Origin: a virus | Direction: 5' to 3' (one strand) | IMG/VR virus record: IMGVR_UViG_3300021962_007022 | Location: 4,245-68,244 of that record | Length of the DNA stretch: 64,000 nt | In this document: in pieces, positions 13,901-16,900 of the stretch | Numbering within the stretch: the first letter of the stretch is position 1 | Layout of the letters: the number at the start of each line of letters is the position of its first letter | Made by a program: the position numbers and the translations under genes | Notes under the pieces: model-generated | The model's database searches: none | Seen by the model: only the letters and a program-made list of their open reading frames with translations | Told to the model about the DNA's origin: nothing

Positions 13901-16900
13901 AATAGAGGTATCTGTACCCTTCAGCGTGCTTGATGTTGTGGCATAAACTGACTGCGTTATTGTATTTCTTGTTGTATTTGGTCCTGTATCAAATACAGTA
14001 GAAGTTGCATATGCGGTGTCAAATACTGATGAGGTACTCTTAGATGTTGCAATCTCAGTTGCATACGCAGTTTCAAAGGCTGTCGATGTTGTTATATTTG
14101 TTACATTTGTTGTGAATTTAGATGTAGCTGTTGCAATGTTGGTTGCATAGGCTGTATCAATTGTTGTATCAAATACACTTGTAGTATTTTTTGCTGTATT
14201 GAATACTGTGTTAAAGACAGAGGTTGTTGTCTTATTTGTATTATATGCAGTGTCAATAGCAGTCTCAAATATTGTTGAGGTACCCTTTGATGTTAAGATA
14301 ACAGTATCACGAGAGGTATCTGTTGCTATTACAGTATTAAATACTGTATTTCTATTTGTTTCAAACGTGGTGTCTGTGTTATATGCAGTTGTTGTTTGAA
14401 ATGCAGAAGCAGTCAACTTAGATGTTGACTTTGATGTTGCAGTAGAAGTATCTGTTGTTTTATTTGTTTCAAATACTGTGCTATAAATTGTGTCATATGC
14501 AGTTGTTGTTGCGTATGCAGTTCCAAATGTTGTTGTGGTTGCAGTGCTTTTTGACGTGGCAGCAGCTGTATTGAATAGCGTGCTAAACGTTGTATCTGTA
14601 GCCTTAGATGTACCAAAGTTAGTTTCAAATGTAGTATCTGTGGCCTTTGATGTATTTCTAGCTGTACCAAAGTTAGTTTCAAATGTAGTAGTTGTATCAA
14701 ATACTGTAGTTGTAGCAACGCTCGTTGCGGTTGCCTTACTTGTTGATGTGGATGTAGCAACTAATGTGTTATATGCAGTCGTTGTGGCAACACTTGTTCC
14801 TGTAACTGCAGCAGTACCTCTTGCTGTATCAAATATAGTAGTTGTACTTCTGGATGTAACAAATACAGTAGTTGTAGCTGCTAGATAGGTAGTAACAAAA
14901 GTTGTAGACGTTACAGATGATGTTGCTGTATCAAATATAGATGTAGTATTTCTACTTGTACCAGTGGCAGCTGCAGTACTTCTTGCTGTATCAAAGACTG
15001 TTGTAGTACCTCTAGATGTACCAAATATTGTCAGTGTTTGATAACCTGTGACATATGATGTTGTAGTTTGATATGTCGTGTTAAATGTTGTTGTTGTGTT
15101 GAATGTTGTAGTTGTAGATTTAGATGTTGCAGTAGATTTAGATGTTGCAGTGGCTCTAGATGTGTCTGTGGCTCTAGATGTTGCAGCACTTGTTATGCGT
15201 GATGTATTGACGCTGCTCTGAATTGTCCAAATAAATTGAACACGGCCGTCGGCACCATTTGCGCCATCGCCACCGTTAGATTGCGTATTAGGTGAACCGC
15301 CACCGCCGCCACCGCCTGGAGCTGAGCCAGCTGATCCATTACCATTATTAACACCATCTACACCACCAGCACCTCCTGCACCACCACTTGCAGCCGCACC
15401 ACCAGCACCGCCGCCAACGTATTGATTGCCATTACCTGCGGTACCAGCTGTATTTACATCACCTCCAGAAGCAAACCCACCAAAACCGCCGATACCAGCA
15501 TAAACATTTGCAGGTATACTACTGTCTGGCCAAGCATTTTGGCCACCGCCGCCAGCACCAGCATCAATATTTACACCTGTACCTGTAACTGTAGATGATC
15601 CCCCTTGGTCTGCATACGAAAATTGATCGTCTACTTCTGCACCAGGTGGATTACCAAAGCCATTGCCCCCCAGACCCACATTATATGTAAATTGTGTTAC
15701 CCCACCCGTCACGTTAACGGTTTTTTGAACATAGGCGCCACCGCCACCACCACCGCCGCCGCCACCTTGCGAGCCGACAACCATACCACTTCCGCCACCG
15801 CCGCCGCCGCCCCAAGCTTTGATTACTACAGAAACAGCACCAGCTGGAGCTGTGATTGTAGCTGAGCCAGAATTATAGGTATCAGTTTGTTCAGATGTGG
15901 AAGTTGTTTGGTAGGTTGTAGTATAGCTTGTATCAAATGTAGTTGTAGTGCCAAATGTGGTTGTTGTATCAAACGATGTTGTAGTATTAAACAGCGTTGT
16001 TGTAGATCTAGAAGTTGCTGTAGCTTTACTTGTTGCAATTGTTTTTTCAGTTGCTTTACTTGTTCCACGGTTTGTTTCTGTTAGAATATTTGTATCAAAT
16101 GCTGTTGTCGTTGCAAAATTAGTTGCATATGTTGTGTTAAACGTTGTTGTAGTGCCAAATGCAGTTGTTGTTATAACACTTGTTGCAGTGTTAAAAATTG
16201 TGGTTGTACTTCTGGCAGTATTTGGCGATACAGTAGTTTGTGTTGCTATATTTGTTTCAAATGATGTTGTCGTTGCAAAGTTAGTTGCGTATGATGTATT
16301 AAATGAAGTTGATGTGTTGAACAACGATGTTGTTGACTTGCTTGTATTGTAGCCTGTGTCATACACTGTAGTGAATACAGTAGACGTGTTGAACAACGAT
16401 GTTGTTGACTTACTAGTTGATGTTAATTTGCTAGTATTAAAGACTGTAACAAATGCTGTTTCAAACACTGAGGCTGTTGACTTAGACGTATTGAATACAG
16501 TTACATAAAGGGATGTCGTGCTTCTAGTTGTTGAACCAGCAGTATCAAAAATTGTAACAAAGGTAGTTGTTGTATTTGTGGCCTTTGATGTGCTGACAGT
16601 TGTATCAGTTGATCTAGAGGTAGCTAAATTTGTATCCTTAGATGTATTGAATACAGTTGTTGTTCCATATGATGATGCATACAACGTATCATAAACGGTA
16701 GAAGTTGCCTTAGTAGTATCTGTGCTCTTACTTGTTTCAGTGGCAAAATTTGTATTATAGACAGTATTTCTATTTGTTTCGTAAGCAGTCTCAGTGGCGT
16801 AAACTGTTGTATAGGCAGTACTATAAACTGTTGTAGTTGTTCTATTACTATCAAAAATTGTTGTTATTGTTGTATCATAAACAGTAGTTGTAGATTTATT

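Follow-up and report, generated by a model that had tools for sequence, protein, structure and literature searches.

The question raised by this locus is why a compact glycine-rich domain should be lodged inside a giant, threonine-rich protein encoded amongst viral baseplate genes, and what it might do there. The window, by which we mean the whole 64,000-nucleotide stretch of DNA that was analysed, stems from an uncultured T4-like myovirus. The answer that we favour, with slightly better than even confidence, is a predicted stalk that folds back on itself and carries an exchangeable adhesin head at its apex. The features concerned are the following:

17407 to 19389, minus strand: gp7-like baseplate wedge protein, N-terminal part only (gp7N), 661 aa, recognised by phrog_17744 and PF23786
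10943 to 17407, minus strand: giant threonine-rich ORF, 2154 aa (31% Thr, 12% Ser), containing the glycine-rich domain
17249 to 17407, minus strand: N-terminal adaptor domain, residues 1–53, ending at an ETSF motif and conserved in orthologues
15887 to 17248, minus strand: N arm of threonine-rich repeats, residues 54–507, 454 aa, with self-identity peaks at lags 18, 54 and 68
15221 to 15886, minus strand: TNF-like and glycine-rich (polyglycine-lattice) domain, residues 508–729, recognised by PF21722, phrog_863, AlphaFold and Foldseek
13883 to 15220, minus strand: C-proximal arm of threonine-rich repeats, residues 730–1175, 446 aa, with a self-identity peak at lag 54
13628 to 13882, minus strand: conserved non-repeat 'anchor', residues 1176–1260, identified by BLASTP against other ORFs
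10946 to 13627, minus strand: distal C-terminal region, residues 1261–2154, with five FQTDSGAGTL-like motifs

The giant ORF is placed between the gp6/gp7-like and gp8-like baseplate genes, in a neighbourhood comprising gp48, gp53, gp5, PAAR, gp25, gp6, gp7N and gp8-like genes, and its start codon overlaps the stop codon of gp7N in an ATGA. The gp7N product matches the 'baseplate wedge subunit' family phrog_17744 (E 4.5e-140) as well as PF23786 (33.1 bits), and aligns to residues 1–516 of the 1288-residue gp7-like protein of the Stenotrophomonas phage DLP6 at 51% and 44% identity. DLP6 has the same gene order, gp6 – gp7 – gp8, but there the gp7N part and the threonine-rich repeats are fused in one protein. 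The giant ORF itself shows only low-complexity similarity to the DLP6 extension (E 0.011 for the first 100 aa), and its anchor is matched at three repeat positions with 33–41% identity. Judged by sequence, the gp7 wedge protein appears to be split here into a 661-residue core and a separate 2154-residue threonine-rich protein, the latter probably corresponding to the C-terminal extension of DLP6 gp7. Full-length orthologues of 1699–2251 aa are found in seven related viral contigs, all with the gene order gp6 / gp7N / giant ORF / gp8-like / DUF4815, and the N-terminal adaptor domain is kept in all eight aligned orthologues with 52–89% identity to the window over 110 aa. A scan of viral contigs with the C arm returned the same related contigs and otherwise distant threonine-rich proteins; the neighbouring genes had no megablast match in the phage collection.

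The glycine-rich domain stands out from its surroundings. Residues 505–738 (234 aa) hold 75 glycines compared with 70 in the remaining 1920 residues, an enrichment that is not due to chance. The five short strings that the earlier note had quoted from the domain all occur in the translation of the minus-strand ORF; the interval that it gave (15215–15885) picked out a genuine domain and was one base out of frame, the in-frame limits running from a TDTYNSGS junction to RVQFIWTI. Against PF21722 (Gly_rich_2; profile of 226 positions, gathering cut-off 24.3 bits) the domain scores 47.9 bits when scanned alone, 35.3 bits within the whole protein, where the match covers residues 513–725 and profile positions 3–223, and 47.6 bits in a six-frame genome search. 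The corresponding domains of two related lineages, scanned alone, likewise exceed the cut-off (L012, 29.8 bits; L021, 49.5 bits), and phrog_863 matches the window domain with E 5e-12. Whole-protein scans overlooked the domain in some cases (P0001 without PHROG, L012 without Pfam) and domain-only scans recovered it; an NCBIfam scan of the domain gave no match, nor did tblastn of the domain against the phage collection, for which the low-complexity filter is a likely cause.

An AlphaFold model of the domain (pLDDT 93.6, pTM 0.89) retrieved the fibre of cyanophage Pam3 (E 1.8e-8) and Bxb1 gp33 (E 1e-7) in Foldseek, and VIA-align ranked Pam3 7ypx_A (Z 22.0) and Bxb1 9d93_Qb (Z 18.0) ahead of the ALK/LTK receptors (Z 8.4–9.3), the first unrelated entry following at Z 3.9. 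When PDB sequences were searched with a profile, RemZ (1.1e-20), Bxb1 gp33 (1.7e-13) and the Pam3 fibre (4e-13) were returned, and at least 231 BFVD viral models match the domain at E <= 0.001, several of them named tail fibre or minor tail protein. The domain falls within PF21722 and superposes on the TG fold. Its glycine runs lie at residues 533–539, 548–557 and 698–704, and the longest GGGGxGG-type runs occupy the first and last loops with variable non-glycine tips, the arrangement that PMC9608196 gives for the TG fold, where variable tips separate the loop halves. Modelling and structure comparison thus support residues 508–729 as a folded, glycine-rich polyglycine-lattice domain of a class found on phage tail fibres, much as the earlier note had supposed.

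The closest solved relative is the Pam3 tail fibre gp24 (PDB 7YPX, 7YFW), which shares the fold with an rmsd of 2.4 Å over 199 of 241 aa at 26% identity; in both, the loops of a TNF-like sandwich build up a lattice rich in glycine, and the tips of the lattice are variable. According to PMC9608196, it belongs to a myovirus and is attached to the baseplate. In contrast to the window head, which is internal to a 2154-residue protein, that of gp24 sits at the C terminus of a 289-residue protein, atop a short alpha-helical shaft that is trimeric, and needs the chaperone gp25; in the giant ORF neither AlphaFold model has a helix before the domain, and 1425 residues follow it. The receptor role of the Pam3 fibre is itself a proposal. 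A Tfa-like chaperone family is absent from Pfam scans of the 52 window ORFs, in a contig that is only ~42% complete. The second relative, gp33 or 'tail wing brush' of mycobacteriophage Bxb1 (PDB 9D93), superposes with an rmsd of 3.2 Å over 197 aa at 30% identity. It decorates the tail tip as an accessory component, but is a separate 267-residue siphovirus protein that sits on the gp30/gp31 wings (PMC12646305). The TG supradomain of the ALK/LTK receptors (e.g. PDB 7MZY, 7NX1, 7LIR) belongs to the same fold class over 140–149 aa; it is part of a cytokine-binding animal receptor ectodomain with 17–20% identity, and the resemblance is one of fold only.

Gp38 of Salmonella phage S16 and the T-even phages (PDB 6F45), whose T-even form the earlier note had singled out, is not among the nearest solved relatives retrieved. 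It, too, has a polyglycine-II lattice, whose variable loops bind receptors at a fibre tip, and its resemblance to the Pam3 and Bxb1 domains, the only link to it, is taken from PMC9608196 and PMC13243192. Small and encoded separately, gp38 attaches through an N-terminal domain to gp37 of the long tail fibre, which it caps, and its middle domain is a beta-helix rather than TNF-like (PMC9608196), whereas the window domain is internal and belongs to a baseplate module. 6F45 is absent from the 309 Foldseek matches and from the VIA re-comparison, an absence from a list that does not prove a different fold.

How, then, might such a domain be presented? Residues 1 to ~1260 would form a fold-back stalk that leads from the N-terminal adaptor along the 454-residue N arm to the apex module and returns along the 446-residue C arm to the anchor, which would end up next to the adaptor at the baseplate. 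The apex module would here be the TNF-like beta-sandwich, with its six inter-strand loops extended into a polyglycine-II-type lattice. The first core strand passes directly into the first of the glycine runs, and the final run directly into the last strand; both chain ends are therefore expected at the pole of the sandwich, with the lattice and its variable tips presumably facing away from the stalk.

The two arms provide the evidence for this geometry. The earlier note had put the domain exactly at the symmetry centre of two arms, and this holds for the arms as delimited by adaptor and anchor (454 and 446 aa); it does not hold for the whole protein, where another 894 residues follow the anchor. 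BLASTP detected the anchor in 15 of 15 other ORFs searched; amongst the 14 that reach it, identity is 76–91% in close and 39–54% in distant lineages, and the 15th, the truncated L072, gave a weak repeat match only (E 2e-9). tblastn of the anchor against the phage collection found no match. Across 11 lineages the N and C arms measure 454/446, 508/500, 451/442, 461/439, 524/509, 432/473, 462/441, 340/334, 556/515, 528/492 and 515/495 aa, the boundaries of apex modules that lack the domain being uncertain by ~15 aa. The lengths correlate with r = 0.938 (n = 11, lineages treated as independent), which was equalled or exceeded in 5 of 20000 permutations. Where the boundaries are sharp, in three lineages, the arms differ by just 8–9 aa over an arm range of 451–508 aa; the outliers are L073 (-41 aa) and L010 (+41 aa). 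Measured by sharp motif landmarks, the N/C values are 546/526 in L010, 510/506 in L077 and 526/506 in L078.

Insertions, too, come in pairs. L012 and L015 carry +54/+54 relative to the window and L014, as does L010 relative to L077; L078 has +30/+30 relative to L010, and L019 has 20/24 relative to L073. The members of a pair share sign and size and flank the apex at comparable distances, as far as gap placement allows, which is ambiguous inside repeats (window against L012: zones aa 358–493 and aa 797–872). Partnerless indels also occur, one of 16 aa confined to the N arm (L078 against L077) and one of 12 aa in L073. Gene conversion between direct repeats was considered as the source of the pairs and discarded, because the positions fit a mirrored and not a same-order arrangement. 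N and C units at mirrored positions are weakly more similar than the rest (mean 92.6 versus 83.0). The matched, co-varying arms and the insertions at roughly mirrored positions are consistent with a stalk that folds back and bears the domain at its apex, and the placement at a hairpin apex that the earlier note had proposed is borne out to that extent.

The protein could instead be one extended, perhaps trimeric, linear fibre, with the domain protruding sideways at roughly a quarter of its length and the arms equal through some other constraint, for example because each has to bridge a set distance between landmarks of the baseplate or fibre. Phage fibres are mostly parallel trimers, a domain whose termini adjoin may just as well be a side insertion, and the glycine-rich domain occupies residues 508–729 of 2154, with the bulk of the chain still to come. 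In an AlphaFold model of residues 400–850 the arms have a pLDDT of 30–47; each forms hairpins with itself only, and the two do not touch. An initial version of this lateral placement, in which the symmetry seemed unsupported, drew on raw arms of 433 versus 1416 aa and on a forward flank alignment (score 330) that exceeded the reversed one (270; shuffled 182), and it was overturned by the anchor and the paired insertions. A lateral bulge is opposed by the co-variation of arm lengths, the 8–9 aa difference in the sharply bounded lineages, the insertions of equal size whose positions fit a mirrored arrangement and the conserved anchor, whose place mirrors that of the N-terminal domain; we regard it as unlikely.

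A more detailed version of the fold-back stalk can be put forward only tentatively. The stalk would be a single chain in which about eight threonine-rich units of 54 residues pair antiparallel with homologous units of the returning arm, and the apex would serve as a general socket for alternative tips, which are the TNF-like/polyglycine head in 4 lineages and, in the other 8, small modules rich in aromatic residues.

Comparison of the relatives bears on what the head may do. Amongst 12 lineages that cover the apex, four (the window, L012, L021 and L072) carry the glycine-rich domain and the other eight have short unrelated modules of 46–92 aa. Between the window and L012 the arms are 85–87% identical and the domain 56%; between the window and L021 the arms are 48–51% identical and the domain 64%, a mosaic pattern. 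Nucleotide alignment is absent over nt 1672–2149 of the ORF, with flanks that are 80–84% identical. Three-way identity within the domain amounts to 76% for glycines (54/71), 38% for strands (30/78) and 16% for other loop positions (15/92); the loops diverge far faster than the glycine scaffold or the arms, whilst junction motifs and glycine positions are conserved across the three lineages. The domain is thus supported as a hot spot of variation that is naturally present or absent among relatives, and the hypervariability that the earlier note had expected of this segment is indeed seen. A further copy of the domain in the DNA, which might serve as a template for generating diversity, is absent from the 64-kb window, and the domain has no long identical flanking repeat and no inverted repeats.

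As an optional domain of the kind that other phages bear at the tips of tail fibres, the glycine-rich domain is probably a swappable host-binding head. It would act as an accessory, exchangeable adhesin, for which relatives plug a different version or a short unrelated module into the same socket, and it would most likely make the first, reversible contact with a structure on the host surface. A structural or assembly role, as a rigid cap or interaction node (e.g. for neighbouring baseplate proteins or other fibres), or the binding of an environmental polymer, appears improbable. Dispensability would suit such a module, given the eight lineages without the domain and given that Bxb1 genes 30–35, including the gene of the structural relative gp33, are described as probably non-essential (PMC12646305); the family is also represented in bacteria, by surface proteins that include RemZ, a substrate of type 9 secretion, and further long secreted proteins. 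Yet variable loops on a conserved glycine scaffold, together with mosaic exchange, are expected of a surface whose diversification is driven by a partner and not of an internal joint. That the ORF is mis-called, or that the domain is merely a low-complexity tract of glycines arisen by chance, as the strong composition bias and the empty filtered BLAST search might suggest, is refuted to near certainty by the Pfam score above cut-off, the confident model, the match to a solved structure, the motifs and glycines conserved in three lineages, and the seven full-length orthologues.

The kind of domain is already known; its placement is new. Glycine-lattice heads are emerging as a widespread device of receptor recognition (S16 gp38, Pam3 gp24, Bxb1 gp33, ALK/LTK), and have so far been met with at protein ends or as tip proteins of their own, whereas the window head is inserted optionally, at one fixed socket within the extension of a baseplate wedge protein. 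A natural series for testing its role in binding and host range is offered by close relatives whose head is diverged or missing. The length-matched arms and paired insertions yield a testable prediction on the folding of very long threonine-rich phage proteins, a class on which structure prediction currently fails. If true, the fold-back stalk with its socket would represent a fibre architecture so far undescribed in contractile-tail phages, and the apex a natural modular system for changing baseplate contacts. A literature search on threonine-rich proteins, the baseplate wedge and gp7 found no description of such an architecture, as judged from the entries listed, and another retrieved no paper naming PF21722 or Gly_rich_2.

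Within the wider sequence family the RemZ match (Flavobacterium johnsoniae) spans residues 2–255; the solved RemZ structure resolves only the C-terminal domain (PMC10994853). Unlike the giant ORF, none of 18 inspected PF21722 proteins is threonine-rich. Amongst the 107 full-length matches within the best 150 PF21722 representatives, the domain is N-terminal in 48, stand-alone in 33, C-terminal in 15 and, as in the window, internal in 11.

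The giant ORF encodes a protein with 31% threonine and 12% serine, within which a glycine-rich domain is delimited, in frame, by a TDTYNSGS junction and RVQFIWTI. The earlier note had proposed a polyglycine adhesin-like domain here; the five strings it quoted are all found in the translation and the domain does lie at this site, but the positions assigned to it were one base out of frame. The features concerned are as follows.

10943-17407, minus strand: giant ORF, 2154 codons
15221-15886, minus strand: glycine-rich domain, residues 508-729
17404-17407, minus strand: junction of ORFs 17404-19389 and 10943-17407, an ATGA overlap

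Glycine occupies 75 of the 234 positions in residues 505-738, compared to 70 of 1920 in the rest of the protein. The Pfam family PF21722 (Gly_rich_2) matches with 35.3 bits in the whole protein and 47.9 bits in the segment alone, both exceeding the curated cut-off of 24.3 bits, and the segment also matches phrog_863, which belongs to the tail category. Folded by AlphaFold from 54 aligned members of the family, residues 500-740 gave a model with pLDDT 93.6 and pTM 0.89. A Foldseek search of the PDB matched this model to the Pam3 fibre (E 1.8e-8), the Bxb1 tail-tip chains Qb/Qa (gp33; about 1e-7) and the glycine-rich ectodomains of ALK and LTK (3e-3 and weaker). A second look with VIA-align returned Z 22.0 for Pam3 (rmsd 2.4 Å over 199 aa, model 5-232 on chain 76-278), 18.0 for Bxb1 and 8.4-9.3 for ALK/LTK, the next entry down scoring 3.9. 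Profile searching of PDB sequences retrieved RemZ (1e-20), Bxb1 gp33 (2e-13) and the Pam3 fibre (4e-13), and at least 231 viral models in BFVD matched at E <= 0.001, several of them annotated as tail fibre or minor tail protein. The fold family is known, and this domain is a new member of it.

The likeness to gp38 adhesins suggested in the earlier note holds for the glycine lattice, which is of the polyglycine-II kind; S16 gp38 (6F45) is absent from both the Foldseek and the VIA-align PDB match lists, and the nearest relatives are heads that combine a TNF-like with a glycine-rich part, rather than gp38. Heads of this type are linked to gp38 in two papers (PMC9608196, PMC13243192). In our model the first core strand continues without a break into the first glycine run, and the final strand likewise follows directly on the last such run. 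In Pam3 the first and last loops lie together at the centre of a distal lattice (PMC9608196). By this modelled topology both termini should therefore emerge at the pole of the sandwich, and the lattice should face outward.

The source contig is viral, 68 kb long and an estimated 42% complete. Near the giant ORF it carries T4-type baseplate genes, namely those for the tail-tube cap, gp53, a gp5-like hub with OB and peptidase domains, PAAR, gp25 and gp6, and the gene order runs from a 661-aa gp7-like wedge protein through the giant ORF and a gp8-like protein to a 1945-aa DUF4815 protein. For gp6 the closest named relative is Stenotrophomonas phage DLP6 (46% amino-acid identity), where gp6 and gp8 flank a single gene with a 1288-aa product; residues 1-516 of that product align with the 661-aa protein and threonine-rich repeats follow. 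From this alignment the giant ORF is best read as a detached C-terminal extension of gp7. Of 16 related loci, 15 show this split too, the downstream ORF starting in a different frame before the gp7-like gene has ended; the contig of the sixteenth stops too early to show it. At its end the 661-aa core has a GDGSTTTF-type strand motif, and a small beta-rich domain opens the giant ORF; speculatively, the two might jointly complete one small domain. The DLP6 gp7-like protein (15780-19646 in DLP6 coordinates) has a globular, non-repeat segment of ~135 aa (residues ~577-712) near the start of its repeats, and such modules may therefore be a general trait of this gp7 lineage.

The domain is preceded by ~430 aa and followed by ~1420 aa, and forward alignment of its flanks outscores reversed alignment. 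Both observations initially led us to doubt a position at a symmetry centre; comparison with relatives reversed this reading. Two scans, with near-identical duplicates merged, yielded 11 further lineages covering the apex, the site between the arms. Every orthologue long enough to include it conserves a non-repeat anchor (residues 1176-1260 of the window's protein). The N arm was taken as the stretch separating the N-terminal domain from the central module, and the C arm as the stretch between this module and the anchor.

Arm lengths in the window and related viral lineages (N arm, C arm; aa); L072 is omitted as the contig end cuts its ORF
Window: 454, 446
L012: 508, 500
L021: 451, 442
L014: 461, 439
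L015: 524, 509
L073: 432, 473
L019: 462, 441
L018: 340, 334
L010: 556, 515
L077: 528, 492
L078: 515, 495

The two lengths correlate with r = 0.938 across these 11 lineages, a value reached in 5 of 20000 permutations that ignore kinship, and sharp motif landmarks give 546/526 in L010, 510/506 in L077 and 526/506 in L078. Insertions also occur in pairs: L012 and L015 each gain 54 aa in both arms relative to the window and L014, L010 differs from L077 by 54/54, L078 from L010 by 30/30 and L019 from L073 by 20/24, with two small unpaired indels among the compared lineages. Copying between direct repeats could be invoked as the source of the pairs; however, partners lie at similar distances either side of the centre and at dissimilar distances from the arm starts, although gap placement in repeats is ambiguous, and this mirrored rather than same-order arrangement argues against such copying. 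The central position proposed in the earlier note is supported by the arm lengths and paired insertions. In an AlphaFold model of residues 400-850 the arms had pLDDT values of 30-47, which neither supports nor contradicts their pairing. Beyond the anchor, residues 1261-2154 (window 10946-13627) have a different repeat pattern; these last 894 residues hold five FQTDSGAGTL-like motifs (1559, 1647, 1768, 1805 and 1963), and near residue 1879 a 12-aa indel in relatives contains one more.

The domain occurs in four of the 12 lineages (the window, L012, L021 and L072, the last truncated by its contig end), whereas the other eight carry at the apex an unrelated, less threonine-rich 46-92 aa, five of them with a common GYxKGxPxY-type motif. 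L014 lacks the domain, yet both its arms are 81-85% identical to those of the window. Identity with L012 is 85-87% in the arms and 56% in the domain, and with L021 48-51% and 64%; this discordance means that the domain has either been exchanged or changed at a far higher rate than the arms. In nucleotide sequence the window and L012 are 80-84% identical on both flanks, with zero alignment over ORF nt 1672-2149. Hypervariability of the segment, a predicted property, was found: three-way identity inside the domain falls from 76% for glycines to 38% for strands and 16% for the remaining positions, matching the description of Pam3, in which the lattice is conserved and the loop tips vary. Among the best 150 representatives from a library of 1.8 billion proteins, 107 cover the whole domain and only 11 of these hold it internally; none of 18 representatives inspected was threonine-rich.

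The giant protein probably runs out and back: its N-terminal domain would dock onto the gp7 core, the N arm would extend outward from it, the apex module would be presented between this and the returning C arm, and the latter would lead back to the anchor. From its relatives, baseplate position and variation pattern we infer that the glycine-rich domain may bind a receptor. The fold family is already known; what is new is the apparent use of such a domain as the exchangeable apex of a gp7 extension with two arms of matched length, an arrangement of which the literature searched gave no description.

Elsewhere in the window, a 685-aa ORF (48856-50910, minus) combines TonB-dependent receptor plug (E 4e-20) and beta-barrel (E 2e-33) domains; a phage-borne outer-membrane receptor gene is unusual and hints at a Gram-negative host. 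After two DUF4815/VrlC-like giant genes (1303-3009 and 3023-8857) comes an ORF that runs off the window (1-1098, minus) and ends in a Peptidase_S74 intramolecular chaperone domain (E 2e-15), a typical C terminus of tail fibres or spikes. Modification-type enzymes are encoded on the minus strand at 39635-40911, 45066-46350, 51024-52281 and 57964-60651, and include TylF-like O-methyltransferase and other methyltransferases, an Asp/Asn beta-hydroxylase, two 2OG-Fe(II) oxygenases and split carbamoyltransferase ORFs. An ORF with a TnsA-like endonuclease N-terminal domain (26590-27030, plus; E 6e-22) separates the baseplate genes from a plus-strand block with tail-tube and baseplate genes.
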